From a virus (lineage: Duplodnaviria; Caudoviricetes), in the IMG/VR virus record IMGVR_UViG_3300032250_000200, positions 1 through 25,125 of that record: 25,125 nt of DNA. One strand, given 5' to 3'. Every line of letters starts with the position of its first letter. The stretch's first letter is position 1. The notes beneath the pieces were generated by a model, which made no database searches, was not told the origin of the DNA, and was given only the letters and a program-made list of their open reading frames with translations. Below, one piece after another: positions 1-23,942 of this stretch. The translations under genes were made by a program, and so were the position numbers.

Positions 1-648
1 ATGCATTACTCACAGGCCGTTGTGGTAATAGGCAACGGAGAAAGTCGCAGTTCTCTAGATCTTGCCAACTTAAAAAATACAGTAACTCTCATAGGCTGCA
101 ATGCCATTCATAGAGATCTTGCGGTTGATCATCTTGTCTGTTGTGATCAACGAATGGTTAAAGAAGCTGTGGCCAATAAAACCATAAGTCATATCTATAC
201 AAGGCCCAGATACTTTAGAGACTTTCATAAAATTCTACAAAAAGATGCAGTGAATAATCTTCCTGCTTTGCCTTATCAAGGAACACTAAAAGCTGACCAA
301 CCAGAACATTGGGGTAGCGGTCCGTATGCTACATTGTTGGCGGCACATTTAAAATTTAAATCAGTCTATATGGTGGGGTTTGATCTTCACGGAAAGAATC
401 GATTGGTCAATAATGTTTATAAAGATACCAATAACTATCTTCCAGCTGGTAAGCCAGCAGTTGATCCGGCCTATTGGATCTACCAAGGAAGAAAAGTTTT
501 TCAATGTTACGAGTCTGTGAATTTTAAAATATTTAATTTACCAGAATGGACTCTACCAACTGAATGGCAATTGCCCAATGTAGAGGTATTTGATTTAAAT
601 AAATTTACATTAGAGCTTGCAAACGAAGTAAATACCCTGTATACTTAA
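1..648 (+). CDS. Maf/DUF115/GT42-like protein, putative CMP-sugar (ulosonate) transferase
   Basis: N-terminal VVIGNGESR, IGCNAIHRD..DHLVCCD, WGSG..A..LA and VYMVGFDL match the GNGxS / SG / GFD signature of CstII-type sialyltransferase and Maf-like folds. Upstream context is outside the window. Confidence 0.55.
   Translation: MHYSQAVVVIGNGESRSSLDLANLKNTVTLIGCNAIHRDLAVDHLVCCDQRMVKEAVANKTISHIYTRPRYFRDFHKILQKDAVNNLPALPYQGTLKADQPEHWGSGPYATLLAAHLKFKSVYMVGFDLHGKNRLVNNVYKDTNNYLPAGKPAVDPAYWIYQGRKVFQCYESVNFKIFNLPEWTLPTEWQLPNVEVFDLNKFTLELANEVNTLYT
617..645 (+). promoter_or_regulatory. sigma70-type promoter for the queD leader, with a nested TAAATA motif
   Basis: TTGCAA (617-622), 17 bp, TATACT (640-645); TAAATA at 629-634 in the spacer; predicted +1 near 651-652. 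Confidence 0.65.
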
Positions 649-650
649 CA

Positions 651-725
651 GACAGCGGACTTCTACGTCATTCATCCCGCTATATAAACTCTGCATGTCG
701 TCAAACTTGCTCATTCATTAAGGAG
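651..725 (+). ncRNA. candidate preQ1-I-like riboswitch / structured 5' leader of queD
   Basis: Stem AGCGG (654-658)/CCGCT (677-681), CATCCC at the loop/stem junction, A-rich tail ATATAAACT (682-690), SD AGGAG (721-725). The layout resembles class I preQ1 aptamers and sits directly upstream of queD; the loop is atypical. Confidence 0.55.
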
Positions 726-732
726 ACTAGAG

Positions 733-1260
733 ATGGCAAAATATCTTTCAACAAAAACTTACGGTAACGATAGAGGTCTATCATGCTGTTTCAGACAATG
801 GCGTGCCACACACAGTCATTGCTCATTACTACATGGTTACTCGATCGGTATCAAGCTGATATTCGAATGTGATACCCTAGACGAAAAGAACTGGGGCATG
901 GACTTCGGTGGACTCAAAGACTTTAAGGAATGGGCAGATTATATGTTTGACCATACCACTGTAATTGCACAGGATGATCCACTATTGAATAGATTCAAAG
1001 CAATGGCAGGTTGGAGCTCAAATCCAGAACACGATGGTGATCAGGATCGTGTACAAACTGAACCATATCGCCGTAGTGGCGTTTGTGATCTACGCATTGT
1101 AGAAGGCGTCGGTTGCGAACTATTTGCTAAGATGTGCTACGAGAAGATGGATTGGCTGCTAAAGAACGGCAATCATCGTTATCCACTTAATCCAACTGTA
1201 AGAATTAAATCTGCAGAAGTGTTTGAACATGCAGGAAACTCCGCAGTCTACGAAGGTTAA
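733..1260 (+). CDS. queD: 6-carboxy-5,6,7,8-tetrahydropterin synthase (QueD/PTPS family)
   Basis: HSHCSLLHGY (CxxxHG motif), MDFGGLK, FDHT, GCE and C-terminal EVFEH; SD AGGAG 7 nt upstream. Confidence 0.9.
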   Translation: MAKYLSTKTYGNDRGLSCCFRQWRATHSHCSLLHGYSIGIKLIFECDTLDEKNWGMDFGGLKDFKEWADYMFDHTTVIAQDDPLLNRFKAMAGWSSNPEHDGDQDRVQTEPYRRSGVCDLRIVEGVGCELFAKMCYEKMDWLLKNGNHRYPLNPTVRIKSAEVFEHAGNSAVYEG

Positions 1261-1411
1261 ATTTTGGCGCTTATGGGCAAAGGCCCTAGGTGAAAAATCA
1301 GGGGCTACTAATCAGGAAGCTGATAGAGTAGCCCTTGTTCGTACAGCTATTGTACTCTGCTATATCATTACAAATATTTTTATTATTGCTGGGGTCATTA
1401 GACATTGGTAA
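1229..1411 (+). CDS. small phage membrane protein
   Basis: [21 protein letters not shown] followed by a hydrophobic C-terminal helix; fills the queD-kdsA gap. Start uncertain (ATG 1229 vs TTG 1223). Confidence 0.7.
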
Positions 1412-1414
1412 ATA
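1409..1414 (+). promoter_or_regulatory. TAAATA putative late promoter for kdsA
   Basis: TAAATA 5 nt before ATG 1420; no SD; same motif at other gene starts. Confidence 0.5.
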
Positions 1415-1419
1415 ATTCT

Positions 1420-2262
1420 ATGCGCACATTTAACATCCACAACATTACCGTAGGCAACGATCGACCATTTATGTTGATCGCTGGCCCGTGTCAAATCGAA
1501 AGTCAAGATCACGCTCTCGATACAGCAGAACGAATTAAAGAAATTACCGATCAATTAGGAATCAAATTTGTTTACAAAAGCAGCTTTGATAAAGCCAATC
1601 GTTCTAGTGTGTCTACCAAACGAGGTGTTGGTCTCAAAGAAGGATTAGAAATTCTTAACACAGTCAAGCACACGCTTGGAGTGCCAATTCTTACTGATAT
1701 TCACGAAAGTTGGCAGGCACAAGAAGTCAGTGATGCAGGTGTAGATATTTTACAAATTCCTGCTTTCTTATGTCGTCAGACTGACTTATTATTGGCTGCT
1801 GGCAATACAGGCAAAGCAATCAATGTCAAGAAAGGACAATTTCTTGCACCGCACGATATGAAGAATGTCGCAGAAAAAATTGCCAGCACAGGCAATGAAC
1901 GAATTATGTTATGTGAAAGGGGATACACTCATGGATATAACAACTTGGTTGTGGATATGCGTAGCCTACCTATTATGGCAAGCACCGGGTATCCAGTGGT
2001 CTTTGATGCTACACATTCTGTTCAACAACCAGGAGGATTGGGCTCAGTCTCCGGAGGCGATCGCACTATGGTCCCGTACCTCGCAAGGGCGGCAGTGGCC
2101 ACCGGATGCGTAAGTGCCGTCTTTATGGAAACTCACGAAGATCCTGATCGTGCGCCTAGTGATGGTCCTAATATGATCAAGCTAGATAATTTAAAAAACA
2201 TACTTGAAGAATTGGTCGCTATAGATGAAATTGTCAAAAGAAATAAGAGACAGTCTAAGTAA
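1420..2262 (+). CDS. kdsA: 3-deoxy-D-manno-octulosonate 8-phosphate (KDO8P) synthase, metal-dependent type
   Basis: [66 protein letters not shown] 1420 preferred over TTG 1405. Confidence 0.95.
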
Positions 2263-3043
2263 AGAACAATTTCGTTTTTATAAACAAAACGGATATCTTC
2301 CGCCAGCAACTGCTGATTTATCAACGCCAGTTGATCCCAATGCTGAAAAAATTACAGTACTCTGTGTAAAGTTTGGGACAAAATACGGACCCAACTATGT
2401 AGAACGATTACGCAATATGGTGAGTCGCCATATGACTGTTCCTTATGAGTTTGCCTGTTTAACCGACGACCCTAATCCAATTTCAGGAGTACGCACTATC
2501 TATCAACGAAGTGCAGGCTATCTTAAACCTTGGTGGCATAAGGTTCATATGTTTGATCCCACATTAGATATACAAGGAAGAATATTGTATCTCGATCTAG
2601 ATGTGGTCATTTGCAACAATATAAACAAGTTGGTTGAAAATCTAAAATACGAATTCATGGGAATCCAAGACTTCAATAGAAAATTTCACCCAAATTGGCG
2701 AATGCTCAATAGCAGTGTGATGAGTTGGCGTCACGGAACACAAAGTGAAATTTGGCAACGATTTGTAGCCAATCCTGCAACTGCACAACGAATGCACGGA
2801 GATCAGGATTGGACTTGGCATGTGGCCAAAGACCGAATTAAGTTTTGGCCCGTAGATTGGATACAGAGTTATAAATGGGAAATCCGCAATAGAGACGAAT
2901 TGGTTGTTCGAACAGGCAAAAGCGGATTTAAATTCATAGCACACGATCTAGTGGTACACCCCCAGTGTTCTATTGCTGTGTTTCACGGAGATCCTAATCC
3001 GGATGTTGTTCCGGATCCATTTGTAGTTGACAACTGGCGATAA
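2225..3043 (+). CDS. GT-A fold glycosyltransferase-like protein (GT8-like)
   Basis: [24 protein letters not shown], DxD motif [26 protein letters not shown]. Confidence 0.75.
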
Positions 3044-3055
3044 ATGTGTTACAAT
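3027..3055 (+). promoter_or_regulatory. near-consensus sigma70 promoter (extended -10)
   Basis: TTGACA (3027-3032), 17 bp, TGn then TACAAT (3050-3055); predicted +1 falls on the ATG at 3062. Confidence 0.8.
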
Positions 3056-3061
3056 AGTAGC

Positions 3062-3364
3062 ATGACTACTATTACTCGTGACCAATTATCCGCCCTACTA
3101 CACACAGGAGAGTGTGTAATAGAATTTACCAAAGTAGATGGCACAGTCCGTACTATGCCGTGTACACTCAATGAAGCTCTGCTTCCTCCACCTCCGGTGC
3201 ATGTTACTAATACAGACAATCCTGTAGACTTTCCTGCTCCTAAAAAAGAAAAGAAATCCAATCCAGATATCATGAGTGTTTGGTGTTTGGACAAAAAGGA
3301 ATGGCGTTCCTTCCGTATCGCCAATGTAATTTCTGCGAAAGTCAAAGATGAAAATCAAGTTTGA
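3062..3364 (+). CDS. WYL_2-like / Sm-like SH3 beta-barrel phage protein
   Basis: IEFTKVDGTVRTMPCTL ... VWCLDKKEWRSFRIANV pattern; start moved to 3062 because 3044 lies inside the promoter. Confidence 0.7.
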   Translation: MTTITRDQLSALLHTGECVIEFTKVDGTVRTMPCTLNEALLPPPPVHVTNTDNPVDFPAPKKEKKSNPDIMSVWCLDKKEWRSFRIANVISAKVKDENQV

Positions 3365-3515
3365 TAAAGATACTATGCCCGACGAATTGTATAATGCGTT
3401 GTTACAGCATTTTGTAAATGAGGCTGTTGGACTAGGCGTAGAAGTAAACAAGTTTACCGAATTTAACGATTGGGTAGTTGAATGTACAGTAAATGAGAAA
3501 GCCGCAGTACACTAA
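3348..3515 (+). CDS. 55-aa hypothetical protein (absent from the ORF track)
   Basis: ATG 3348, MKIKFDKDTMPDELYNALLQHFVNEAVGLGVEVNKFTEFNDWVVECTVNEKAAVH, TAA 3513-3515 overlapping the uvdE ATG (TAATG); exactly fills the gap. Confidence 0.75.
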   Translation: MKIKFDKDTMPDELYNALLQHFVNEAVGLGVEVNKFTEFNDWVVECTVNEKAAVH

Positions 3516-4540
3516 TGACTAAACGCATAGGCTTTGCCTGCAAGTGGATCGACGGTCCTAGCCAAATTGACGGCATTAAACAACAGGACAACTGTAAACA
3601 ATACAATACCGGCAGTACCACTGTGGCCTGGTTAAATAGACAGACTAAGGAAGTGGCGGAACAACGACTGTGGGACCTAATGGTAGGTAACATTGAAAGT
3701 GTTCGAAAGCTGGTTGCCCTGGTTGGAGAACAACATGAAGATCTTAGAATGGTACGACTCAGCAGCGATATCCTGCCTGTTTATACTGAGCCAACTTGGG
3801 GCGGGTATTGGCGGAGTGCCGATGTACGAGCCTATTGCGAAAGAGCATTTGGAGCCGTGGGAGCTTTGGCTCGCGAGAGGGGTGTTAGGTTGTCTATGCA
3901 CCCTGGTCAGTTTACTGTGCTTGCATCTAGCAATCCAGGTATTGTAGGCAGGTCAATTGAAGAATTTGAGTATCATACTGATATGGTACGCTGGATGGGC
4001 TATGGCAAGACCTTCCAAGACTTTAAGGTAAATGTACACATAAGTGGTCGCGAAGGCCCCGAAGGTATTCGTCGTGCATTAACACAACTAAGCCCCGAAG
4101 CTCGCAATTGCATCACTATTGAAAACGATGAAATGACTTGGGGCATTGATTCTAGTATTGAACTAGTAAATGATTGTGCCCTAGTGCTAGACATTCACCA
4201 TCATTGGATTAACTCTGGAGAATATATTGAAGCAACTGACGACCGTGTTAAGCGGATTATTGATAGTTGGCGTGGTGTCCGCCCTGTTATACATTATAGT
4301 GTATCACGGGAAGACTGTCTTATTGACTATCCCGGATACATCCGTCCCGATCTTCCGTCCCTCTTAGAGCAGGGATACAAAAAACAAAAACTCAGAGCTC
4401 ACTCAAACTTCTACTGGAACACAGCAGTGAATGAATGGGCTCTGAGCTTCCGTGACAACTTTGACATAATGTGCGAAAGCAAAGGCAAAAATCTTGCCAG
4501 CTTTGCACTCTACGAACAAGGTCTTAAGCAGCTGGCTTAG
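3515..4540 (+). CDS. uvsE: UV-damage endonuclease (UvdE/UvsE family)
   Basis: RIGFAC, RLSSDILP, RLSMHPGQF, IENDE, LVLDIHHH, IHYS, RAHS, DIMCESKGKNLA. Confidence 0.92.
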   Translation: MTKRIGFACKWIDGPSQIDGIKQQDNCKQYNTGSTTVAWLNRQTKEVAEQRLWDLMVGNIESVRKLVALVGEQHEDLRMVRLSSDILPVYTEPTWGGYWRSADVRAYCERAFGAVGALARERGVRLSMHPGQFTVLASSNPGIVGRSIEEFEYHTDMVRWMGYGKTFQDFKVNVHISGREGPEGIRRALTQLSPEARNCITIENDEMTWGIDSSIELVNDCALVLDIHHHWINSGEYIEATDDRVKRIIDSWRGVRPVIHYSVSREDCLIDYPGYIRPDLPSLLEQGYKKQKLRAHSNFYWNTAVNEWALSFRDNFDIMCESKGKNLASFALYEQGLKQLA

Positions 4541-4829
4541 CTTTTGGCTTGCGGTTACCTGTAGACTTTTTAGGGGCTGCTTCTTTTTTAGGAGCGGCCT
4601 CCTTCTTAGGAGCAGCAGGCTTTTTGGCCGCAGGCTTCTTAACTGGCGTTGCAGCCGGTGCTGGTTCTACAGGAGCAGCTTCTGCTGGTTTTTCTATCTG
4701 GGCTTCGACTTTTGGTGTGTAGACAATACCCGTTAACGGGTCTTGAGCGACCTCAACCTTGTAAGGCACTTCTGCTGGTGCAGGTGCTGCCTCTTTGGCT
4801 CCAAATAGTTTCTTGATTAATCCTAGCAT
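4524..4829 (-). CDS. Lys/Ala/Pro-rich histone H1-like protein with amphipathic N-terminus
   Basis: PAAKKPAAPKKEAAPKKEAAPKK repeats; N-terminus MLGLIKKLFG; SD AAGGAG and TAAATA (4852-4857, minus) upstream. Confidence 0.8.
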   Translation of the reverse strand: MLGLIKKLFGAKEAAPAPAEVPYKVEVAQDPLTGIVYTPKVEAQIEKPAEAAPVEPAPAATPVKKPAAKKPAAPKKEAAPKKEAAPKKSTGNRKPKAKPAA

Positions 4830-4854
4830 ATTAAAAGTCTCCTTAGATTTTTAT

Positions 4855-5142
4855 TTAGTATCTACCTACAGGTAATGTGCTACTAGCTGGCATATCCCAA
4901 ATTTTCTTCTTTTCAACTCCTTTTCTCTGAGCGAAGCGTTTACTATCACAGGTTGAGCAACAGTGAAAATAGTTATTGCTCAACCTTTTTCTATCTATGT
5001 GTTTTAGATCTCTGCGGAATATGTCGTCGCAATTGTCACAGCGAAACACTGCTAGAGTCTTATTACGAGTGTAAGCGTGTTCTTCCCCTAGCTTACTGTG
5101 TCTAACATATTGAGTTTCTTGAATTTCTGTTGTCAGGAACAT
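4855..5142 (-). CDS. basic Zn-binding hypothetical protein
   Basis: FRCDNCD ... FHCCSTCD cysteine pairs; TAAATA 4 nt upstream of ATG on the minus strand. Confidence 0.75.
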   Translation of the reverse strand: MFLTTEIQETQYVRHSKLGEEHAYTRNKTLAVFRCDNCDDIFRRDLKHIDRKRLSNNYFHCCSTCDSKRFAQRKGVEKKKIWDMPASSTLPVGRY

Positions 5143-5146
5143 TCTG

Positions 5147-5183
5147 TATTTACATCCGGCTTATAAAATTTTCAAACTAAATA
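5147..5183. promoter_or_regulatory. divergent pair of TAAATA putative late promoters
   Basis: TATTTA at 5147-5152 (minus) and TAAATA at 5178-5183 (plus) in the 73-bp divergent intergenic region. Confidence 0.6.
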
Positions 5184-5215
5184 GTAGAGTAAGCATTAAA
5201 TCTTAGGATTCTACT

Positions 5216-8200
5216 ATGGCAAGAAAAGTAATTGATACAGGTATTGTGGGTAATGACGGTACCGGTGATAGCATACGCGACTCGTTTCGCAAGGTAAATG
5301 AAAACTTTAGAGAGCTCTACGGCGCACTCGGTCTAGGAAGTAGACTAAAGTTTTCTACTCTAGAAGATGCTCCAGTAGGCGGAGAAGGAGAAGATTATTA
5401 TCGAGGATATGAAAATGCCGTAGTTGCAGTTAATCCCAACGAATCTGGTTTAATTTTTAAACAGTTTACCGCAGGGACTGGTATTAGTTTGAATTTTAGT
5501 AATGAAAATCAAATAGTAATTACCAACACTCGATCTTCGGTGGCAAACGATCCGTTTCCTAGTTTGGGTGGTAACCTACAGGCACAATCAGGCGGTGTTC
5601 AACGTCGTATACAGTCGTTAACTACTCCAGTTAGCTCAGACGAAGCTGCAAATAAAGGTTATGCAGATACCAAAATAGCTCTAGGCGGAGTTAACGCTCC
5701 TGACCCAGGAGCAGGTAATATCCCAAACAGTGCGTTTGGAACTATGACCGGTCCGTTGATTCTATCGAGAAATCCAGAGCCAGAAGACGATGTTACCTAT
5801 GGTGGACTAATTGCCGCTACTAAAAATTATGTTGACAATGCAGGTTTTGCTTCGGTAGCCAACTTGTATGTTGCTACATCTGGATCCGATGAACGAGTTG
5901 GCGTGGGTGCTAATACTCAAGGTCGTGCATTAGCATTTGCCTATAGAACTATTGAAGCAGCACTAAAAAAAGCCGAAGAGATTATCAAATCGGCACCACC
6001 AGAAATAGGACCATATCGTAAAGTATTGACTTGGACCAACCCCGACAGCGGTGCTATCAACAACTGTTCATTAACTGACATTGCAGTTTCACCAGACAAC
6101 GGAGTGGGATTTGCAGGTCGTGTTACTTTAACCATAGACACTATTAGACTAGTAACCGGTGGTTACAACTTCAAAGTAAATGAAATTTTAAGAATTAACA
6201 AAGTAGGCGGCGCAGCAATTGATGCTGCTACTGTAAGAATTCTCACAGTAAACAGCGAACCTGGCACTCCAAACGGACCTATCCTTACATTTCAATTGCT
6301 AACTGGCGGTAAATTTGATTTAGGACTACCGGAGACCAATGTTGGTGGTAATATTGTTGTCGGTGTTGCTAATGGAAGCGAATTTGGAACTAGTGCAGAA
6401 TTTGCTGTTACCTATAAGGTCAGCACTGCCATTATCACTGCTGGAGGAACAGGATATAGCTTGGTATCTGTTCGTGTAACTCCTGATGTAATGGATACTG
6501 GTGCTACAGCAGGTTTTGGTTTTGCTGACATTGTTAGCGGATCTGTTGCTGGTATTACTATTACAGATCAGGGTAGAAATTTTACAGAATTTCCAGATCT
6601 AATAGTAACACTGCCTAGATTTGAGATTTACACTGGGGGACAAAGAACCGACTTCACTGGAGATGTAACCACCGACAGTGCTGTGGCTCGTAGGGGTCGT
6701 GACATTCGAGAAGGTCTTTACCTATTAGGTGAAACCTCAGGAGCATTAGCACAAATTCTTTCTCATCAAGGTGAATTAGATACTAACGGAAACGAACTGT
6801 TTGATGTTGACATCAAATATGGTACATTCGTTAAAGGGGAATCAATTTCATACGGTGATGTTGCTAATACTCGGCAGGTTGCTGTTTTTGTTGAAACTGG
6901 AATATATTATGAAAATCTACCATTAAAGGTATCACAAAACGTAGCCCTTATTGGTGATGAATTCCGTAGAACAATTATCCGTCCAAAGAAAGGCATGAGT
7001 TCCAGTCCTTGGGCGTTTCAATACTTTAAACGAGATAGAGTTATCGATGGATTGAATACCGCGAGAAACGATCTTAATGCTGCCAGAGAAGACACATTTG
7101 GATATCATTATCTAGGCAATGCAAGCGAGCCTGTTTATCCTGAAGCAAGTATCAACAACAAAGGCTTCTATAGATCAGCTGCTGATCTACTATCTCTAAA
7201 TAAACAATTTATACAAGAAGAAGTTATTGCCTGGATCAACAAACAGATTGCCGAAGAAGTCGCTCCGTTTGTTGATTTTGAATATAACAGCGATATCTGC
7301 AAACGAGATGTAGGACTGTTAATCGATGCCATGGTATTTGACCTACGCTACGGTAGTGCTCCTAGGACTATTTCTGCGGCACTAAAATACAAAGATGCAA
7401 ATAATGCCAGCGCCCAGTTAGCAATTACTACTCAATTAACACAAACCATTGCGGCTATTCGAAGATTAGAAACTGTAGCACAGGCTGTTATTCGTAACAT
7501 TGAGATTGTAAACTCAGAGTACAATGCTCCGATTACAGGAACACTGATTACCTATGTTGAGCCACAAGTTATTGATACTGCCTATACAGCAGAAACAGGA
7601 GCTGGCGGCACCCCAGTTACTGTGTCAGCAGTAACTAGAGGAAATCAAACCACAATCACAACATCAGCAGAGCATGGGTTTGACAGCGGAGAAATTGTAA
7701 CTTTCCGTGGCATGACTGGACTAACCGAACTAAACGGAAACAGTTATTGGATTACTGTGGCTAACCCCACACAGTTCAATATCTTCACCAACTCTGCAAG
7801 AACTGCAAACGTTGTCAGTACATCGTTTGGTGCATATACTGCTAGCTCAGGAGACTGTGTACCCAACGGTGGCGTTATCGGAAGACTCACTGATGTTATT
7901 GTTGACATCATTGATACTTCCAGCGAATCATTTAATACTCCGTTAGACAACGATCAAATGGATGTGTTCTTGATGAACGATGCTACCATCCTTCGAGCTG
8001 CAACAATTCAAGGCGCAGGTGGTTTTGCGCTAGTACTTGATCCCGAAGGACAAATTCTTGCTAAATCACCGTATGCTCAAGAAGGTGCAGTATTTTCAAA
8101 GAGCACAGGACGACACACATTCAGTGGTGGTATGTTTGTTGACGGATTTGCAGGTAACATTAAATTTAGAATTACCAATAAGATTAGTACTACAAGACTA

Positions 8201-11200
8201 CAGGTTGATCAACTAAAAAGATTCCCGCAACTGCCTGCTTCATTTATTGTTCAGGATACAGTTTATCGCATCAACTATGTTAGAGATTTTACCTACGGAA
8301 CCAGCGGCAGCACAGCTACATTTGTTCTAGATGAAGTTACCCCGTGGCCCTTTGATGTGTTTAGCTATGATCAAACTATCTGTAATAGAGATGTTGGATT
8401 AATTATCACTGGTCTGGGATATGATGTTGTACTTAATACCAATTATCATAGTAGACGAGCAGGACAGACTTATAGAGAAGCCAACGCCGAAGTGGTCATT
8501 GAAGATCAATTAGATTTAACTATCAGAGCCATTGACCGAGCACATGATCGTGCAACTGCCACTTTACGGGCAATTGCTGTATCATCAGAATTTGATCCTA
8601 GTCTTGCAGTGATATCTCAAAGCAAGATCAACTTGAGAAATATAATTAGACGCGGTACTACTGCGGCTCCATCACTAAGTATTACCAATCCAACAGGATT
8701 GGCCAGTAATATTGCTAATGCCAAAACACTATTAATTTCCAATACAGAATTTTTAAAACAGGTCGGAACTGGTTATCTTATCACTACCTATCCGGCACTA
8801 GCATCTTCTGCTCCGAGTGTTCAAAGAGACATTGAACATATTTTAGATAGTTTGATCTATGACTTAGTATATGGTGGTAATAGCGAAACTCGTAAGGCGG
8901 CCTATAACTATTTTAATGGAGTGGGAGAAGCGTTGGTTCTTCAACTGTTGGTAACTGAACCTCAGGCCCGTGAAAATGCTCTAACAGTGGTTAAAGATGC
9001 AGCCAAACAGGTTATTGTTCTTACTACCGTCACTCCAACTTATGGAGCCACAATAGGTCAAACTCTCGGAGTAGCTAGTGACAGTACAGTGGCCAGTAGT
9101 ATTGAAACTTTGATGTCTATTATCATTACCGCACTAAACACCTATCGAGTTACTGGAGGAACAGAAGCGGCAAAGTTAGCGGCAGCAGTAGCATCATTAC
9201 CTGCCGAAGTGTTGCCAAAATTGACTGCGGGCGGTGGTGGCTATGACTATGATACCAATAGGACAGGTGCTCGTGTTGCGCTTGAAGCTGCAAAAACTAC
9301 TATTCAGTCTAATGTGATAGAGTTTGTTAATAATAATGCCAATGTCTACGAGGTATTGATGCCTGGTAATCGAAGTATGTTGTCAAATGACTTCACACAA
9401 ATCAATGACATGGGATACGGATTGATTGCAGCCAACGGTGGTTTAACAGAGTGTGTAAGTATGTTTACCTACTACTGTTATACTTCTTATTATTCTATAA
9501 CTGGCGGTCAAATTCGAGGTGTTGGAGGATCAAGTGCTCACGGTGTTTACGCTCTTGCAGCAGAAGGTTCAGATCCATTAGAAGTACCAACTCCGGTAGA
9601 TTTGTACTATGATCTGGCGCAGGGTGCTGTAGTATACAACGACCTAGGTGCCTACGACAACGATGTTAACGGCTTTATTGTTTATGTTACTGACTATACC
9701 TATCCACCAAGAGACCAAAGTGAGATTGAAGTTGATCACGGCGGAGTTACAGGAATTGTAAGATATCCTGTTATTAGTGCTGTAACAGAAAGTGACTTTC
9801 CAGCTGACTCGACAGGCCAGCGACTTTATAGACTAAACTTAGACAGTGCCACAGACGGTCTTGTAGCTCAGGTCCCTAACGGTACTAGAGTTACACTAAG
9901 AACCAATAACGAGATTGTTCTCACAGGCGGTGTTGTTGGTGTTGCAGTCCGACCATCCACTGCTTTAAAAATCAACGAATTGTTTGACAGTCAACTATAT
10001 CGTGTTTTAGAATTTGCAGATTACTTCCCTCCAATTAATGAGGCAGTGGTCTGTACATTTATAACTGGCGTGGACACTCTTGTCCAGACTTCAATAGCTC
10101 ACGGACAACAGCCGGGATATGCAATTAGATTTTCTACCAGTGGTAGTTTGCCAACTGGAATCTCTGCAGGAGATACCTATTATCTTTTAGACGACGGATT
10201 CACTGCAACCACATTTAAAATTTCGGCTGCAAAGAATGGACAACCGTTAGAAACTACTACAGCAGGTGCAGGCGCTCATTTCTTTGAAGCTACGAAACTT
10301 GCGGCTACTGCACTGAAAGATGGCTACAACTATGCTGAAATTACCTTGTGGCCGAGACAAGAGTTTGTACCAGAGACAGCTCCTAGTAATCCGGGCGGCC
10401 CTAGATTAATTGTCGGCGCAACTGAGATAGTTAGCGGTTACAGTTATTATATTGTAACTGTAGGGACTACTGTTTGGACTTCAATCGGTGCTGCTGCAAA
10501 TACTGTTGGTACTGTGTTTACTGCTACTGGTTCTGCTTCAGGAACAGGTATTGCTGTGGTCAACAGTGCCCGTTGTACATTTAATCACACCGCTGATACT
10601 ATTCTAAAATCATCGCATGGTTTTAACAACGGTGATATTATTCGATTCGAAACTAGCGGCATTATGCCTTCGGGTGTTTTCACTAGTAGGCAATACACCG
10701 TTGCCAACCGAACAGCCAACGATTTTCAAATTATCAGTTATGCTGGCGGTCCAGTTATTGAATTTAGCGATAACGGAACAGGAATATTTGCTATTGGCAA
10801 GGTGCTAGGCAGAGTTGGCGACAATACTCTGTCTGTTGTGGAATTGGGGCCTGTTGATGCGGCTCGAATTGTTGGCACTAAGTTAACATTCAAAGGAAGA
10901 GATTACAGTATTGTACAATATGACGATGCAGACATCACTGGCGAATCGTATGGTCAGATTTATCTTAACACTCCATTAGAAGATAGTGCAATTGTATATG
11001 ATAGTCCAATAACCTTGTTTGCTGGTGTTGCTGCAAGAACCGAAGACAGTCAAGGTACACTGACTATTCGTATTTCATTGACTCGTGTTACTGGTCATGA
11101 TCTGTTAGAAATTGGTACTGGTAGCTATGCTGACACAAACTATCCGAACGAAATTTATGGTAGCCCGGTACGCATTGCCACAGAAACACTGTTAGATACT

Positions 11201-14200
11201 ACAGGTGAAGTCGAATATAGTCAGGTGGTAGAAAGAGGTGAAGGTCGCTGCTTCTTTGTGACCACTGACCAGTTTGGTAATTTCTCCGTTGGTCCATTCT
11301 TTAGAGTTGACCAAGGTACTGGTACTGTTACATTCTCAGCCAGTTTGGCATTGAGTAACTTGAGTGGTCTAGGATTCAAGCGTGGTGTTCCAATCTCAGA
11401 ATTCTCCACTGATACAACATTCAGTGATAATGCCACAGACACTGTGCCAACAGAAAATGCAACTCGTGGTTACCTAGATCGTAGACTAGGTGTAAGTCAT
11501 GGTGGAGACTCAATTGATCCTGGAAGATTAATCCCCCCAACCGTTGGCGGTTATATGGCCCTATCAGGTCAGTTGGCCATGAAGGGGACTATGAACATGG
11601 ACAATTACAGAATTAGAAATGTAGCTGATCCTGTTGATCCCCAGGACGGAGTTAACTTACGAAGCATTAGCTTTGATGCTATTATTGCCAACAGCTTCCC
11701 AGGTCAGGCAGTAGATGCAGGATACACCATTGCATTCACTGGTACAGGCAACGAAGGCCGTGCTGTAAAAATTGCAGGTGACTTAACCGTACCGGGCGAT
11801 AATGCAATTACAACTGGTATCGATTCTACTGCCAACGAATATAACATCTATATTAAACCAGACATTATCGATAACGACAATATCAATAGTGCAGCAGCTA
11901 TTGCACAAAGCAAATTGTCAATGGTCACTGCAACCGCTAGAGCAAGTGCTGCTGGTATTACACAGGCTGATAGAGGACTGGCAAGTTTTAACAGTGCTGA
12001 ATTTACACTAACTAATGGTTGGACTGAATTAAAGACTAACGGTATTGAACTAGGCAAGTTTGCGCAAATTGCCACTGATACTGTGCTAGGTCGTAGTGCA
12101 GCCGGTACAGGAGATGTCAGTGCTGTGGCATTTAGTACTGTAGTTGATGAAGGTGGCGCAATCAAGAAGAGCCAATATAGCAGTCAAGGTTTCTTACGCA
12201 GGACCGGTGCAACTACCAGCAGTCAAGACAGCGACTACGGTATTGTTGAAGCAGTCAGTGCCTATGCTGGATTTACCGATGTAACTGCCAATAACCGATT
12301 GGTTATCAGAGACGGCAACGGCGATATTGGTGTTAGAGACTCATATGCATCAAGAGCATTTTATGTAGGAACCAGTGCTAGTGTTAATAAGAAACTGGCT
12401 GACACTGCGGTAACTGCTACAGGTGGATCTATTAACTTGTATGGCTTCAATGGAGTACTAGGTGTCAGTATTGGAGACGGAAGTTTAACTAGTGATAAAG
12501 TTTCTAGTTATAGAAACAACAGTCACAGATTCCGTTTAAATGACGACAGTGCATTTGCTCCGATACAGGTTAGTTCAATAATCACTCCTGATGTAACAAC
12601 TGGTGGCGCAAGTACCGCGGGCACATTGACTGGTAATTGGTCAATGAATACCACCAGTAACCTAACCCTGGGTACCGGTACAATTAACGCCAGCGCAGGA
12701 ACCTTGCAGTCTACAACACTTACAACTGGTGCAGTAGGCACAGCTGGTACACTAACCGGCGCTTGGAGTTTAAACACCACAAGTAAAATTATTGGACAAA
12801 CTGGCAGTGAAATTGATTTTAGTACTGGTACTATTAAGTCAAGAACATTTACCACAGGCGCAAACATTACCACAGGTAACCTAACTGGTAACTGGAGCCT
12901 AACTTCGTCTAGTAAGATTGATTTTAGTCTTGGCACACTACAGTCAACAACGTTGACTACAGGTGCAACAGGCACAGCTGGTGTTATTACTGGACAATGG
13001 AGTGTTGCTGTAGGGTCAAGCATTAATACAGGCGGTACTACTCTTACCACAAGAGCAATTACTACAGGAGCCGCAGCAACTACAGGTACTATAGAAGGTG
13101 ACTGGAGCATGTTGACCACAAGTAACATTACTTGGGGTACTGGCTATTTGGACATGCGTCCGGGTACATTCTATACAGATACAATTACTACTGGAGCAGA
13201 GGGAACTGCGGGTGTTATCACTGGTAATTGGAGTATGGCCGGTGCAAGTAACCTAACCCTAGGAACTGGTAGTATTGATGCAAGAACTGGTACATTGTAT
13301 ACAGATACACTGAACACTGGTGCTAGCGGAACTGGTGGTATTGTTACTGGAGCATGGACCGTTGCTGGCGGCAGTACATTTGTTGCCACAACAATTCAAA
13401 GCCAAGCAAACTCTGCAACAACTACAGCAACAACTGCCAACACTGGCGGAACAATTGTTTTGAGAGATGCAGGTACTGGAAACTTTAGTGCAGGCACAAT
13501 TACCGCAGCGTTAAGTGGAAATGCAACTACTGCAACAACATGGCAGACTAGTAGAACAATTACCCTAACTGGTGATGTAACTGGAACAGTAAGCGGCGTT
13601 GATGGCAGCGGCAACATATCCATTTCTACAACAATCAGTGCCGATGCTACAGTACTCGGTACAGACACAACTGGTCAATATGCAACCACTGTAGCAGTTA
13701 GCGGAACCGGACTAAGTTGCACTAGTCCTAACGCCGCAGACGGTACAGCCTATACTATTACAAGTAATGCAACTAGTCTAAATACACTCGGCGCAATTGT
13801 TGCTCGTGACGGAAGTGGTAACTTTACTGCTGGTACAATCACTGCTACATTGAACGGAAGTTCAAGTAGTTGTTCAGGCAATGCTGCAACTGTTACCAAC
13901 GGTGTGGTCACTACCGGTAGCTACAGTGACCCATCATGGTTAACATTAAGCAAAGGTAAGGTTGGTCTAGGTAACGTTGATAATACAGCTGATGCTAACA
14001 AATCAGTTAACTATGCTAACTCAGCAGGCAGTATTACTAGTCAAGCTAACTCGGCAACGATTACAGCAACTAGCGCAAATACTGGTAACACAATTGTTCT
14101 GCGTAACGGCGACGGTGATTTCAGTGCAAGAATTATGACTGGTACTGCTACAGCGGCACGCTACGCTGACTTGGCAGAAAGATACGAATCAGACAAAGAA

Positions 14201-14548
14201 TATCCAGTTGGTACTGTTGTTGTGTTCGGGGGCGACAAAGAAATTACAACAACTAATACAAAGATGGATACTGCGGTTGCAGGTGTTATTTCTGCCAATC
14301 CTGCGTTTAGAATGAATTGTGAAGCAGGTGAAGATAGCACACATCCGTATGTTGCACTGGCTGGTCGTGTTCCTTGTCGAGTAGCTGGTAAGATCAAGAA
14401 AGGTAACATACTAGTTACCAGCGGAATTCCAGGAGTAGCGGTTGCTGCTGTTGGCGACATTAAGGTAGGATCTATGATAGGAAAAGCACTTGAGGACTAT
14501 GACTCAGATCACATAGGCACAATTGAAGTAGCTGTAGGGAGAGCATAA
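5216..14548 (+). CDS. giant virion structural protein (tail fibre/tailspike-like, 3110 aa) with C-terminal chaperone-like domain
   Basis: N-terminal GNDGTGDSIRDSFRKVNENFRELY (T4 gp9/gp10-like); beta-helix-type motifs (LYVATSGSD, YRTIEAAL, GIYYENLPL..LIGDEFRRTIIRP); CKRDVG helical repeats; HGF..G modules; Thr/Gly fibre repeats; C-terminal YADLAERY..VALAGRVPC. Confidence 0.85.
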   Translation: MARKVIDTGIVGNDGTGDSIRDSFRKVNENFRELYGALGLGSRLKFSTLEDAPVGGEGEDYYRGYENAVVAVNPNESGLIFKQFTAGTGISLNFSNENQIVITNTRSSVANDPFPSLGGNLQAQSGGVQRRIQSLTTPVSSDEAANKGYADTKIALGGVNAPDPGAGNIPNSAFGTMTGPLILSRNPEPEDDVTYGGLIAATKNYVDNAGFASVANLYVATSGSDERVGVGANTQGRALAFAYRTIEAALKKAEEIIKSAPPEIGPYRKVLTWTNPDSGAINNCSLTDIAVSPDNGVGFAGRVTLTIDTIRLVTGGYNFKVNEILRINKVGGAAIDAATVRILTVNSEPGTPNGPILTFQLLTGGKFDLGLPETNVGGNIVVGVANGSEFGTSAEFAVTYKVSTAIITAGGTGYSLVSVRVTPDVMDTGATAGFGFADIVSGSVAGITITDQGRNFTEFPDLIVTLPRFEIYTGGQRTDFTGDVTTDSAVARRGRDIREGLYLLGETSGALAQILSHQGELDTNGNELFDVDIKYGTFVKGESISYGDVANTRQVAVFVETGIYYENLPLKVSQNVALIGDEFRRTIIRPKKGMSSSPWAFQYFKRDRVIDGLNTARNDLNAAREDTFGYHYLGNASEPVYPEASINNKGFYRSAADLLSLNKQFIQEEVIAWINKQIAEEVAPFVDFEYNSDICKRDVGLLIDAMVFDLRYGSAPRTISAALKYKDANNASAQLAITTQLTQTIAAIRRLETVAQAVIRNIEIVNSEYNAPITGTLITYVEPQVIDTAYTAETGAGGTPVTVSAVTRGNQTTITTSAEHGFDSGEIVTFRGMTGLTELNGNSYWITVANPTQFNIFTNSARTANVVSTSFGAYTASSGDCVPNGGVIGRLTDVIVDIIDTSSESFNTPLDNDQMDVFLMNDATILRAATIQGAGGFALVLDPEGQILAKSPYAQEGAVFSKSTGRHTFSGGMFVDGFAGNIKFRITNKISTTRLQVDQLKRFPQLPASFIVQDTVYRINYVRDFTYGTSGSTATFVLDEVTPWPFDVFSYDQTICNRDVGLIITGLGYDVVLNTNYHSRRAGQTYREANAEVVIEDQLDLTIRAIDRAHDRATATLRAIAVSSEFDPSLAVISQSKINLRNIIRRGTTAAPSLSITNPTGLASNIANAKTLLISNTEFLKQVGTGYLITTYPALASSAPSVQRDIEHILDSLIYDLVYGGNSETRKAAYNYFNGVGEALVLQLLVTEPQARENALTVVKDAAKQVIVLTTVTPTYGATIGQTLGVASDSTVASSIETLMSIIITALNTYRVTGGTEAAKLAAAVASLPAEVLPKLTAGGGGYDYDTNRTGARVALEAAKTTIQSNVIEFVNNNANVYEVLMPGNRSMLSNDFTQINDMGYGLIAANGGLTECVSMFTYYCYTSYYSITGGQIRGVGGSSAHGVYALAAEGSDPLEVPTPVDLYYDLAQGAVVYNDLGAYDNDVNGFIVYVTDYTYPPRDQSEIEVDHGGVTGIVRYPVISAVTESDFPADSTGQRLYRLNLDSATDGLVAQVPNGTRVTLRTNNEIVLTGGVVGVAVRPSTALKINELFDSQLYRVLEFADYFPPINEAVVCTFITGVDTLVQTSIAHGQQPGYAIRFSTSGSLPTGISAGDTYYLLDDGFTATTFKISAAKNGQPLETTTAGAGAHFFEATKLAATALKDGYNYAEITLWPRQEFVPETAPSNPGGPRLIVGATEIVSGYSYYIVTVGTTVWTSIGAAANTVGTVFTATGSASGTGIAVVNSARCTFNHTADTILKSSHGFNNGDIIRFETSGIMPSGVFTSRQYTVANRTANDFQIISYAGGPVIEFSDNGTGIFAIGKVLGRVGDNTLSVVELGPVDAARIVGTKLTFKGRDYSIVQYDDADITGESYGQIYLNTPLEDSAIVYDSPITLFAGVAARTEDSQGTLTIRISLTRVTGHDLLEIGTGSYADTNYPNEIYGSPVRIATETLLDTTGEVEYSQVVERGEGRCFFVTTDQFGNFSVGPFFRVDQGTGTVTFSASLALSNLSGLGFKRGVPISEFSTDTTFSDNATDTVPTENATRGYLDRRLGVSHGGDSIDPGRLIPPTVGGYMALSGQLAMKGTMNMDNYRIRNVADPVDPQDGVNLRSISFDAIIANSFPGQAVDAGYTIAFTGTGNEGRAVKIAGDLTVPGDNAITTGIDSTANEYNIYIKPDIIDNDNINSAAAIAQSKLSMVTATARASAAGITQADRGLASFNSAEFTLTNGWTELKTNGIELGKFAQIATDTVLGRSAAGTGDVSAVAFSTVVDEGGAIKKSQYSSQGFLRRTGATTSSQDSDYGIVEAVSAYAGFTDVTANNRLVIRDGNGDIGVRDSYASRAFYVGTSASVNKKLADTAVTATGGSINLYGFNGVLGVSIGDGSLTSDKVSSYRNNSHRFRLNDDSAFAPIQVSSIITPDVTTGGASTAGTLTGNWSMNTTSNLTLGTGTINASAGTLQSTTLTTGAVGTAGTLTGAWSLNTTSKIIGQTGSEIDFSTGTIKSRTFTTGANITTGNLTGNWSLTSSSKIDFSLGTLQSTTLTTGATGTAGVITGQWSVAVGSSINTGGTTLTTRAITTGAAATTGTIEGDWSMLTTSNITWGTGYLDMRPGTFYTDTITTGAEGTAGVITGNWSMAGASNLTLGTGSIDARTGTLYTDTLNTGASGTGGIVTGAWTVAGGSTFVATTIQSQANSATTTATTANTGGTIVLRDAGTGNFSAGTITAALSGNATTATTWQTSRTITLTGDVTGTVSGVDGSGNISISTTISADATVLGTDTTGQYATTVAVSGTGLSCTSPNAADGTAYTITSNATSLNTLGAIVARDGSGNFTAGTITATLNGSSSSCSGNAATVTNGVVTTGSYSDPSWLTLSKGKVGLGNVDNTADANKSVNYANSAGSITSQANSATITATSANTGNTIVLRNGDGDFSARIMTGTATAARYADLAERYESDKEYPVGTVVVFGGDKEITTTNTKMDTAVAGVISANPAFRMNCEAGEDSTHPYVALAGRVPCRVAGKIKKGNILVTSGIPGVAVAAVGDIKVGSMIGKALEDYDSDHIGTIEVAVGRA
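12590..13375 (+). repeat. seven imperfect 35-43 aa coding repeats (TTGA..TAG.(L/I)TG.WS)
   Basis: Trp-anchored units GNWS, GAWS, GNWS, GQWS, GDWS, GNWS, GAWT in the translation; DNA diverged. Confidence 0.85.
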
Positions 14549-21580: not shown

Positions 21581-21813
21581 TGTTTCATCCTTTGCAGCAA
21601 GATCTTACAAAATTTACCGATTCCGATATCGAAAATAAATTACAGGAATTGAGTAAAAAATATTTTGCTGCACAGCGAATGGGCAGTTACGAGCTCTTGA
21701 CACAGATATCAACCTTTGTTACAATATATAGACAGGAACTATCTCGTAGATATATGGAAAAAAGCAGAGGCGCTCTAGACCCAGATCTAGATCAATTGAT
21801 AAATGTTGATTGA
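21580..21813 (+). CDS. hypothetical helical protein
   Basis: 77-aa ORF, TAATG-coupled to the upstream gene, overlaps the next start. Confidence 0.7.
   Translation: MFHPLQQDLTKFTDSDIENKLQELSKKYFAAQRMGSYELLTQISTFVTIYRQELSRRYMEKSRGALDPDLDQLINVD
21697..21725 (+). promoter_or_regulatory. near-consensus sigma70 promoter upstream of the dnaE fragment
   Basis: TTGACA (21697-21702), 17 bp, TGn then TACAAT (21720-21725). Confidence 0.75.
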
Positions 21814-22282
21814 AAACACATTAGAAAATCTCATCAAAGGTGTAATGCAACACGGTCCAGAAATACTGGAGGATTGTGTTGCCAATCCCAACGACATAGT
21901 ACAATACCTACAAAGGGTAGATCAAGAGCGCCTAGATTATCCTGTGACTAAATTACAAGTAGATAAAAACAATTGGTTTATTCCAGAAGAATATAAAACC
22001 ATGGACATACTAGATTGGTTGTATTATCGATGCCCGACCCCGGAAATACGAGAAAGGGTAGTTGAAGAACTTCGACTATTTGCCAAACACGATATGATTC
22101 CGGTATTAAAAACCATGAAGTATGTTGTTGATACTCTTAGGGCCAACAATATAGTTTGGGGTGTAGGACGGGGTAGTTCCGTTTCCAGCTATGTACTCTA
22201 TCTAATAGGGATACATAAGATAGACAGCGTTAAATACGATTTACCAATCGACGAATTCTTTAAAGGAGAACAAAATGGGTAA
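21803..22282 (+). CDS. dnaE: stand-alone fragment of DNA polymerase III alpha subunit (family C)
   Basis: RVVEEL...KYVVDTLRANNIVWGVGRGSSVSSYVLYLIGIHKIDSVKYDLPIDEFF aligns by eye with the DnaE GxGRGS..GSLVAY.LGIT..DP..Y.L.FERF segment; stops before PDIDxD. Confidence 0.8.
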   Translation: MLIENTLENLIKGVMQHGPEILEDCVANPNDIVQYLQRVDQERLDYPVTKLQVDKNNWFIPEEYKTMDILDWLYYRCPTPEIRERVVEELRLFAKHDMIPVLKTMKYVVDTLRANNIVWGVGRGSSVSSYVLYLIGIHKIDSVKYDLPIDEFFKGEQNG

Positions 22283-22499
22283 GATACATACAAGTATGCG
22301 TGGAAGAGAAGTTGACTTAGAAAAACTCAACATGATTCACGAAAATGTTCCAGCAGTCGGCAATGCCAAAGTAAATGCTCGCGGTGACGAATTAGGTCCG
22401 GGCGGTGTAATTAAACGCACTCGCGAACAGGTTCTAGCAGATTATTATGCTAAGAATCCCAATGCCATGCAAGAAGAAATTGCAGCTCGTAGACGATAA
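22275..22499 (+). CDS. hypothetical protein preceding groES
   Basis: SD AAGGAG; TAAATA at 22231-22236; PAVGNAKVNARGDELGPGG. Confidence 0.75.
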   Translation: MGKIHTSMRGREVDLEKLNMIHENVPAVGNAKVNARGDELGPGGVIKRTREQVLADYYAKNPNAMQEEIAARRR

Positions 22500-22508
22500 G
22501 AGGCACTA

Positions 22509-22907
22509 ATGTTTGCATTTGGGCCTAAACAGATCAAGGTACGAGCACTACCTAATGATATTCTAGTTGTAGACATGGACCTCGGCGAGATGAAAACTGC
22601 TGGCGGAATTGTTATCCAAAGTGATAACGGTAAAGCACACGGCATTAAACCTCGTTGGGCCAAGGTCTACAAAGTTGGTAGTAACATCACTGATATACAA
22701 GAAGGTCAATGGATCCTTATAGAACACGGTCGCTGGACTCGTAAAATTACCATTGACGACGGCGACGGAGTTAAAGACTTTCAAAAAGTAGAGACTAAAT
22801 CCATACTTGCTGTAACTGACGAAAAACCCACAGACTTTTATATTGGTACAGAGTACGGTCATGGAGATTCAGCAACGATTCGTCCGGAAGACTTTGGCGC
22901 ACGATAA
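22509..22907 (+). CDS. groES: co-chaperonin GroES-like protein
   Basis: VRALPNDILV, mobile-loop KTAGGIVI, VYKVG...IQEGQWIL; C-terminal extension. Confidence 0.85.
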   Translation: MFAFGPKQIKVRALPNDILVVDMDLGEMKTAGGIVIQSDNGKAHGIKPRWAKVYKVGSNITDIQEGQWILIEHGRWTRKITIDDGDGVKDFQKVETKSILAVTDEKPTDFYIGTEYGHGDSATIRPEDFGAR

Positions 22908-23146
22908 TGGGGTTCAAGAAGTCTTGGGATGCTGCTGACATTATGTCTCAGATACAGTCGTTGTCTAGAGAATGTCGGAGTCCATACAACGACGGTTTTA
23001 CTGGTTGGAACTGTAAACAAGACTTATTGATAATACAAGAACTAGTCAATGAAGCATTGAAAGATTCTCCAACCTTTGGAGATTTGGAAATAGACTGGTT
23101 GAAAAATCGAGAACAACAGCGTATAATTAAAATACTTAAACAGTAG
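22907..23146 (+). CDS. hypothetical protein
   Basis: 79-aa ORF, TAATG-coupled to groES. Confidence 0.7.
   Translation: MGFKKSWDAADIMSQIQSLSRECRSPYNDGFTGWNCKQDLLIIQELVNEALKDSPTFGDLEIDWLKNREQQRIIKILKQ
23099..23127 (+). promoter_or_regulatory. sigma70 promoter upstream of the nucleotide-sugar dehydrogenase
   Basis: TTGAAA (23099-23104), 17 bp, TATAAT (23122-23127). Confidence 0.7.
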
Positions 23147-23153
23147 GAAAGTT

Positions 23154-23942
23154 ATGCGTATAGGTATTATAGGGTTCGGCTATGTAGGCCAAGCTATTGG
23201 GTGGTCTTACCAATACAAAGCCGAACTCGTTATTAGAGATCCTAAATTAGTAGATTCTGCATCGCTAGATCAACTTGCAGACTGTGATGCTATTTTTATC
23301 TGCGTTCCAAGCCCGTCAACCGAAGATGGCCATTGCGACACAACTATTCTAGAAACCACTTTAAAAGAATTGTTATTTGTAAACATCAATAAACAAATTC
23401 CCATTATCAGTAAGGTTACTGCTCCGCCAAGAGTTTACACTCAACTACAACAAGAATACCCCAACTTGGTTTACTGTCCAGAGTTTTTAACTGCGGCTAA
23501 TAATGTTGCAGACTATGCTAACTCAAACTACTTTGTACTTGGTGGTGATTATGATTGGTGTGTCAAGGCCAAGGAAGTGATTCGCTTAGGTGTTCAGTTA
23601 GTACATGATAAGTTTACTATTGTAGATATAAAAACCGCTTCACTATACAAGTATATGATGAACACCTATCTAGCAACTAAAGTAACATTCATGAATGATT
23701 TTAAACTGTTAGCAGACGCAGAAGGAGTTGATTGGAATGATTTAAAATACCTATCAACAGCAGATAGGAGAATCGGTAATACGCACATGAATGTTCCAGG
23801 CCCCGATGGTCAATACGGCTGGGGCGGTGGTTGCTTTCCTAAGGATGTAGCTGCTATAATAATGGAAGCTATTGATAAGAATGTAGACTTCGAACTGTTA
23901 GATAGAGTTGAAACAATTAATAAAAAACATAGGAAACTGTAA
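23154..23942 (+). CDS. ugd: UDP-glucose/GDP-mannose dehydrogenase family protein (short form)
   Basis: Rossmann GIIGFGYVG, FICVPSP, PEFL, KYMMNTYLATKVTF.N, DRRIG, catalytic GGGCFPKD. Confidence 0.85.
   Translation: MRIGIIGFGYVGQAIGWSYQYKAELVIRDPKLVDSASLDQLADCDAIFICVPSPSTEDGHCDTTILETTLKELLFVNINKQIPIISKVTAPPRVYTQLQQEYPNLVYCPEFLTAANNVADYANSNYFVLGGDYDWCVKAKEVIRLGVQLVHDKFTIVDIKTASLYKYMMNTYLATKVTFMNDFKLLADAEGVDWNDLKYLSTADRRIGNTHMNVPGPDGQYGWGGGCFPKDVAAIIMEAIDKNVDFELLDRVETINKKHRKL

Follow-up and report, generated by a model that had tools for sequence, protein, structure and literature searches.

A covarying pseudoknot leader of phage queD genes as a candidate riboswitch with predicted ON logic

The stretch of viral DNA analysed here, referred to as the window (25,125 nucleotides; IMG/VR record IMGVR_UViG_3300032250_000200), is a 25-kb virus record with tail, baseplate and auxiliary metabolic genes. 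Close to its start, an 84-nt gap (649-732) separates an open reading frame with no assigned function (1-648) from a gene of the PTPS/QueD-like family (733-1260, plus strand). Does this gap hold a regulatory RNA and, if so, to which class does it belong and in which direction would it act on queD? The initial annotation had described the gap as the longest between the called genes, which holds once two minus-strand open reading frames in 4540-5216 are counted, and had read it as a variant of the class I preQ1 riboswitch (preQ1-I) exerting feedback control on queD. Its central observation, a riboswitch-like leader tied to phage queD, is borne out by conservation and covariation. Taken singly, the fold of 651-693 is unremarkable (z -1.78), and what goes beyond chance is comparative evidence.

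Architecture of the leader element

The element spans 654-701 of the window (48 nt, plus strand) and follows a pseudoknot pattern upstream of the queD-like gene. The sequence originally quoted for it was found at 654-691; an end at 693 had been proposed, yet the element runs on to 701, and a conserved YUCUGC stretch had been partly missed. The first helix, P1, folds as claimed from five base pairs between 654-658 (AGCGG) and 677-681 (CCGCU), an arrangement drawn from both the fold and the alignment, and closes an 18-nt loop. At the start of this loop lies L1 (659-661), which reads H-C-U, with H being A, U or C in 19, 16 and 10 of 45 elements, respectively, and CU being fixed in our search rule; position 659 corresponds to the site of the invariant U6 in preQ1-I. 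Farther along, the 5' strand of the second helix, P2 (665-671, ACGUCAU), finds its partner in 695-701, save for a single U-U mismatch in the window copy, and this yields an H-type pseudoknot. A smaller GAC/GUC hairpin had been suggested inside the loop; it would consume the invariant P1 base G658 as well as part of the P2 strand, and a Watson-Crick partner is available in just 41 of 139 distinct elements. This hairpin was rejected.

The junction UCAUC (672-676) contains C673 and A674, which are able to extend P2 by pairing with G693 and U692; these combinations are CG and AU in 82 of 85 aligned elements each, and, since they are nearly fixed and never change on both sides, the two pairs are putative and carry no covariation proof. 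The junction ends in the conserved C676, correctly identified earlier as the C directly before the 3' strand of P1, which we infer, by analogy with preQ1-I, to be a candidate ligand-reading base. Among 142 distinct elements, the base ahead of its equivalent is U 103 times, C 24 times and A 15 times. The A-rich L3 (682-688) has A at fixed alternate positions and, judging from preQ1-I, likely packs into the minor groove of P1. Next to its three fixed A residues, 48 of the same 142 elements have C and the other 94 have U; setting its register against that of preQ1-I would require a structure. It is followed by the conserved YUCUGC (689-694), which is absent from descriptions of preQ1-I, and by a strand (695-702) with two alternative partners, forming either the 3' strand of P2 (695-701) or an anti-start strand (696-702 with 732-738). 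Altogether, about 13 unpaired or non-canonical positions are fixed, and the conserved bases gather at the P1/P2 junction in the manner of a small pocket.

Distribution of the element

A protein search with QueD returned 530 viral stretches, of which 80 were kept, 79 of them with a 5' flank. The element is present in all 79: 78 fit a rule of fixed G-N-C-U, C-C-S and A-N-A-N-A-Y-U-C-U-G-C combined with at least four of five P1 pairs, and the remaining one (L047) was recovered by a model of the element at 50 bits. The comparison of upstream regions proposed earlier thus found P1, the junction C and the A-rich tail conserved in 79 of 79 loci, with covarying stems, where the closing G-C of P1, C676 and the CU of L1 are built into the rule itself. 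To guard against this circularity, a second scan used a pattern without any pairing information. An estimated 2000 or so stretches in IMG/VR fit this pattern, and among the 120 that were retrieved, P1 forms at least four of five pairs in 119, all five in 112, and both stems form in 69; an ORF of the PTPS family lies downstream in 115. The corresponding figures for a null set of 120 cell-genome matches are two with a full P1 and none with both stems; this set came from a scan with an over-loose pattern that covered two of 64 parts, and its matches behaved as chance. In metagenomes, where some 3200 stretches are estimated to match, 100 of 123 matches precede a PTPS gene, all of them with at least four P1 pairs, and most of the other 23 have no P1. 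By sequence comparison, hundreds of uncultured aquatic phage sequences keep the predicted pseudoknot pattern through compensatory changes, and the pattern is firmly linked to queD. Strong leader copies occur once per record in 15 of 15 carrier records (115-382 kb).

The element was sought in cells and cultured phages as well. The strict pattern found nothing in 401 genomes around a Pseudomonas genome and nothing in 401 around a Flavobacteriales genome. Six matches in 301 genomes around a Nostoc genome were rejected, as P1 is broken and they score at most 12.5 bits against 45-62 for true copies; four of the six are one coding gene in related genomes. With these chance matches removed, the motif was not found in the 1103 cell genomes searched by pattern, and a model search of five cell genomes gave no match. 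Among cultured phages, blastn gave a single 20-nt match, attributable to chance, and the model found nothing above 17 bits in five whole records (ACP17, Paride, Phosso, RHph_I1_18 and PhiXhv-15); no leader precedes the six PTPS genes of these phages, and none is found in the queD locus of phage Iggy. Rfam has no family at the element in window positions 400-900, nor in 20 of the homologous loci. No description of the motif was found in the literature searched, although supplementary listings or subscription papers may hold one; searching by term did not find it in the accessible text of PMC5737381, PMC7266159, PMC10690425 and PMC10043782, and the supplements of PMC5737381 and PMC10690425 may list it. 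We consider the element to be an uncatalogued riboswitch candidate, with predicted ON logic and a putative ligand, as judged from sequence comparison.

Covariation of both stems

For the covariation analysis, 85 of the 142 distinct elements were aligned, picked by eye for diversity. In this alignment 92.9% of P1 and P2 cells are paired, compared with 74.3% after shuffling and 33-52% in slid registers, and changes on both sides occur at nine of the 12 pairs. P1 is paired in 98.6% of cells, with both-side changes at four of its five pairs; P2 reaches 88.7%, with register shifts, and is less regular than P1. Among 59 distinct combinations of P2 strands, 37 pair at four of four positions, whereas shuffling gives 19.8 on average and at most 29. 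When the elements were placed on a QueD protein tree with 172 tips, P1 pairs 1 to 4 were seen to change on both sides together about 20, 13, 39 and 2 times, respectively, counts that are rough because the set was pre-filtered for perfect P1 and leaders may recombine. P2 is looser on the same tree, with more joint than single-side changes at every pair. Comparative evidence thereby establishes covariation for P1 as well as for P2.

Position of the element in the transcript

A sigma-70-like promoter candidate, TTGCAA-17-TATACT, lies at 617-645 (plus strand), from which transcription would begin 1-2 nt before P1. The earlier proposal of this promoter stands as to its presence and agrees with the spacing among homologues, whereas taken alone the site is at chance level: positions 1-3000 hold seven promoter-like sites where 7.9 would be expected. 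In 101 of 254 distinct upstream regions, the end of a -10-like hexamer falls 4-20 nt ahead of P1, while shuffled sequences give 41 on average and 57 at most; the distances peak at 7-8 nt, and that of the window is 8 nt. TAAATA occurs within the last 40 nt in 119 upstream regions (19 after shuffling). This spacing peak, together with the TAAATA excess, makes it likely that the aptamer sits at the 5' end of the transcript. In 19 sequencing runs, no more than small shares of the sequence words were found. Four of these runs gave RNA-library contigs, all from relatives, that span the region but can show neither transcription nor its start, and we take them as evidence of neither expression nor habitat.

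A shared strand as expression platform

In the minimum-energy fold of the window copy, 696-702 pairs with 732-738 across the start codon (733-735), while 695-701 doubles as the 3' strand of P2. The resulting hairpin (696-738) is predicted to bury both the Shine-Dalgarno sequence AAGGAG (720-725) and the start codon, a region that together spans 720-738. In a set of 158 distinct leaders, the probability that offsets 2-6 past the conserved core are paired to the ribosome site is 0.86-0.94. Pairing of the first five nucleotides past the core to this site, be it the start codon or the Shine-Dalgarno region, has a probability above 0.5 in 138 of the 158; of 268 leaders that belong to other genes in these loci, 33 reach it. 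The native five-mer adds 4.5 kcal/mol to the hairpin, where swapped natural five-mers contribute 2.7 and random ones 1.3, and it outdoes the swapped natural ones in 134 of 158 leaders. By these sequence-based measures, complementarity between the P2 3' strand and the ribosome site is well established. Two main platform types use this one strand, covering the start codon in 92 leaders and the Shine-Dalgarno sequence in 53, with 13 other or unclassified. The core ends 21-42 nt and P2 is located 22-42 nt before the start codon, and P2 itself is variable, 4-7 bp long, and devoid of a Shine-Dalgarno sequence.

Since the 3' strand of P2 is also the strand that covers the ribosome site, formation of P2 would open this site, and translational ON control is predicted; the feedback (OFF) control proposed in the initial annotation runs against this competition. 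Counting against the prediction, the computed accessibility of the ribosome site in the window copy rises only slightly once the aptamer is withheld, from 0.36 to 0.39, and on average over the 158 leaders from 0.45 to 0.59, with a gain above 0.1 in 109 of them. A three-way covariation that included codon 2 was striking in single cases and fell at a shuffle of its 14 distinct combinations, covariation between the anti-start strand and codon 2 being no higher than in the shuffle (0.786 against 0.784). A transcription terminator as platform is unlikely, because a run of five U is found in just eight of the 158 leaders.

The downstream gene and its pathway

The gene at 733-1260 encodes a 175-aa protein with a CxxxHGY motif that matches PF01242 (5e-12) and phrog_2389 (7.5e-34); against TIGR03367 it scores 30 bits, below the cut-off of 89. 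QueD (CPH4 synthase) is characterized by the PTPS fold and a CxxxHGH motif with the catalytic Cys (PMC10516641). The CxxxHGY form is present in 174 of 174 downstream proteins, and the leader is kept before at least four CxxxHGY subfamilies, 35-41% identical to the window protein outside its own group; it also precedes the canonical CxxxHGH type. A relative at about 45% identity is annotated as QueD within the queE-queC-queD-folE-dpdA cluster of phage Iggy.

Each of the five largest carrier records, which belong to related jumbo phages, encodes FolE, QueE, a DpdL-like protein with the motif LxxxHRHxF and a 435-aa candidate transglycosylase. In all five, folE and queE are situated away from the queD-leader site and neither has a model match, the leader standing only before queD. 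The LxxxHRHxF protein is 55.5% identical to a protein of the cultured phage ACP17, whose record lacks the leader. The 435-aa candidate bears TGT-like motifs, and we take it to be DpdA-like. Its assignment as DpdA in the carriers is weak: neither the Pfam TGT profile nor Iggy DpdA matches in any of the five records, searches of PHROGs, Pfam and PDB are blank, and there is a weak Atlas match to a TGT-like cluster. The two proteins are exemplified by L337:42-1349 and L337:3469-3879 (genome G003; homologues in G001-G005), a candidate divergent DpdA and the DpdL-like protein near folE and queE. Both have relatives, annotated as hypothetical proteins, in cultured phages, namely the Pseudomonas jumbo phages PA5oct, Paride and MIJ3 and the Sinorhizobium phage Phosso; for this reason these phages may carry 7-deazaguanine DNA. 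Phage Paride additionally has a pair of PTPS-family genes (W01:C1:40504-41004 and 42823-43233) that belong to different subfamilies and are separated by 2 kb, both without the leader, the first directly following the end of a folE-like gene.

The pathway in the carriers likely leads from GTP through 7,8-dihydroneopterin triphosphate (H2NTP), CPH4 and CDG to DG in DNA. Full-length queC was not found in 15 carrier records, three of which are at least 90% complete; the one QueC match above cut-off covers profile positions 4-68 of 210 only. The carrier phages therefore probably do not make preQ0 or preQ1 themselves. H2NTP is also the precursor of folate, which makes QueD a branch enzyme between folate and deazaguanine synthesis.

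A candidate ON switch and the competing explanations

Two general marks of a riboswitch were seen here: a conserved, covarying 5' leader, coherent genes, and a platform computed to share a strand with the aptamer. We favor, as somewhat probable, the interpretation that the leader is a new small-molecule riboswitch that turns translation on; ligand binding and the direction of switching are what we infer from the sequence comparison. In the OFF state, P1 would be folded while 696-702 pairs over the start codon or, in the second subtype, the corresponding strand pairs over the Shine-Dalgarno sequence. A ligand would bind at the P1/P2 junction, among C676, the C-U of L1 and YUCUGC, and stabilise P2. 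In the ON state, P2 would then draw the switching strand off the hairpin and free the ribosome site. Guanidine-III (ykkC-III) riboswitches provide a works-like comparison, being compact H-type knots in which formation of P2 frees the ribosome site. The comparison extends to the H-type knot with ON wiring only; the gene context is different, and Rfam gives no match at the element in the window or in 20 loci. A single ligand is bound by guanidine-III riboswitches, according to PMC7266159.

As to the ligand, our tentative guess, with a low expectation of being right, is a pterin with a guanine-like face such as H2NTP or a folate-pool pterin; possible candidates after it would be guanine or GTP, followed by CDG or DG. 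The guess follows from QueD consuming H2NTP at the folate branch and from the leader standing only before queD: if the switch is turned on by H2NTP or a pterin akin to it, this would explain its presence there and not at folE or queE. A pterin would offer a guanine-like face to C676 but no purine N9-H, the atom read by U6 in preQ1-I (PMC11625349), which fits the loss of U6. In the complete scenario, uncultured aquatic jumbo phages would have a riboswitch class of their own, new to science, in which a pterin such as H2NTP or one of the folate pool is sensed and QueD is switched on only when the pool is to spare, thereby metering folate for DNA precursors against 7-deazaguanine for protection of the phage's own DNA; this seems to us rather doubtful as a whole.

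PMC9004378 calls riboswitches rare in phages and describes predicted glutamine riboswitches in the Methylophilales phage Melnitz. Both cases concern riboswitch-type RNAs in aquatic phages, whereas the Melnitz RNAs resemble the bacterial glnA motif and the present motif fits no catalogued family. In the sources consulted, the riboswitches described from phages to date are predictions that fall into known classes (e.g. PMC9004378). The present element is a strong orphan candidate: its 48-nt motif covaries clearly, its target genes belong to a single family, and its expression platform is visible. If confirmed, phages would have a native riboswitch class that was not borrowed from hosts, phage DNA hypermodification would be placed under metabolite-level control, and the motif would represent a very small ON-switch scaffold with a shape similar to preQ1-I and the opposite logic.

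A phage protein, whether an activator, QueD or another pathway enzyme, could alternatively bind the knotted leader and set queD translation in the manner of phage translational operators. The element is seen only in phage contigs among the DNA searched, in a single copy per record, and its fixed unpaired bases could form a protein site; since known riboswitch classes are mostly cellular and no true copy was found in the searched cell genomes, there is room for a phage-protein partner. We nevertheless regard such a partner as unlikely, as the leader is kept before QueD proteins that are so divergent, conservation centers on the P1/P2 junction as in a small pocket, and self-repression by QueD would favor an OFF hairpin, yet the hairpin is variable and has two forms.

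The knot could also act without a ligand, timing or tuning QueD translation through folding order or temperature, or shielding the 5' end of the mRNA. P1 does start approximately at the predicted +1, and computed stacking of P2 (mean -10 kcal/mol, loop costs ignored) exceeds the loss of the hairpin (mean 4.8), so that the knot might form unaided. Such a device, which we consider quite improbable, has no need of some 13 fixed bases that are unpaired or non-canonical, nor of an almost exclusive tie to a single enzyme family.

In the initial proposal, a variant of preQ1-I would bind preQ0, CDG or some other 7-deazaguanine and switch queD off by feedback. According to PMC11625349, preQ1-I requires a G-C floor, a specificity C, U6 and an L3 adenine: the base before the specificity C is U in type I and A in types II and III, U6 in L1 reads N9 of preQ1, together with U7 in types I and III, and L3 provides a ligand-contacting A, plus C31 in type I. 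In translational members, the same source states, the bound P2 buries Shine-Dalgarno bases and turns the gene off. Measured against this description, the element is likewise a small H-type pseudoknot with a 5-bp P1 closed by a fixed G-C, and it too has an A-rich L3 and a conserved C ahead of the P1 3' strand, whose preceding base is usually the U of type I (103 of 142). The G-C floor, this C and the A-rich L3 fit what is given there for the alpha site; a gene of the que and 7-deazaguanine pathway lies downstream, and folE, queE and the DpdL-like gene accompany it in five of five records. These resemblances support the preQ1-I-like layout claimed before; membership as a variant does not follow from them. 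Position 6 is A, U or C and position 7 is C, with no fixed U6 or UU; the A tract is followed by an invariant YUCUGC, and P2 is a variable helix in its own right. This P2, having no Shine-Dalgarno sequence, competes with the hairpin that hides it and predicts ON rather than OFF control. The suggested check with the Rfam PreQ1 model (RF00522) gave no match at the element in the window, the 20 loci or the five records at E<=10, the best score anywhere being 13.8 bits against a gathering cut-off of 39, and a full queC is found in none of the 15 records. In sequence terms the element is shaped like preQ1-I in its lower half and is not assigned to that class, and the variant model as a whole appears very doubtful.

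Finally, it is hardly credible that the element acts at the level of DNA, as a promoter, operator or recombination site, or that it reflects nothing but common descent: duplicated copies do bracket inserted genes in two loci, but two crossing helices, compensatory changes and many G-U pairs fit a single RNA strand, and the sequence on both the 5' and the 3' side of the element is variable among homologues.

Duplicated leaders and neighboring genes

The first of these two loci, L057, has leader copies at 1346-1396 and 2926-2976 that bracket a 1.5-kb insert before queD-queE, consisting of a 312-aa radical-SAM-like gene and a 187-aa ORF. Its upstream copy retains a similar downstream hairpin and may have been co-opted. 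The leader is likewise duplicated in the metagenome contig L388 (955-989 and 2118-2152, minus strand), with the full copy standing before queD; in the upstream copy a P2 3' strand that matches is missing, and the two ORFs behind it begin like signal peptides and match nothing in Pfam. The recurrence of this duplication in both loci suggests that the leader may be a site for gene-cassette insertion.

In the window, queD is followed at 1405-4540 by genes for a KDO8P synthase (kdsA)-like protein, a glycosyltransferase, a WYL_2 protein and a UvdE endonuclease, and uvdE and glycosyltransferases are frequent neighbors across the loci. Two open reading frames on the minus strand of an otherwise plus-strand region encode a 101-aa histone-like protein rich in Lys, Ala and Pro (4524-4829) and a 95-aa protein with two CxxC pairs (4855-5142). 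A tail-fiber-like protein of 3110 aa is encoded at 5216-14548, with a Pfam E1_FCCH match at residues 811-858. Toward the other end of the window, 21803-24310 carries genes for a 159-aa protein resembling part of DNA polymerase III alpha, a Cpn10-like protein, a UDP-glucose dehydrogenase-like protein and a PRA-PH/MazG-like protein.
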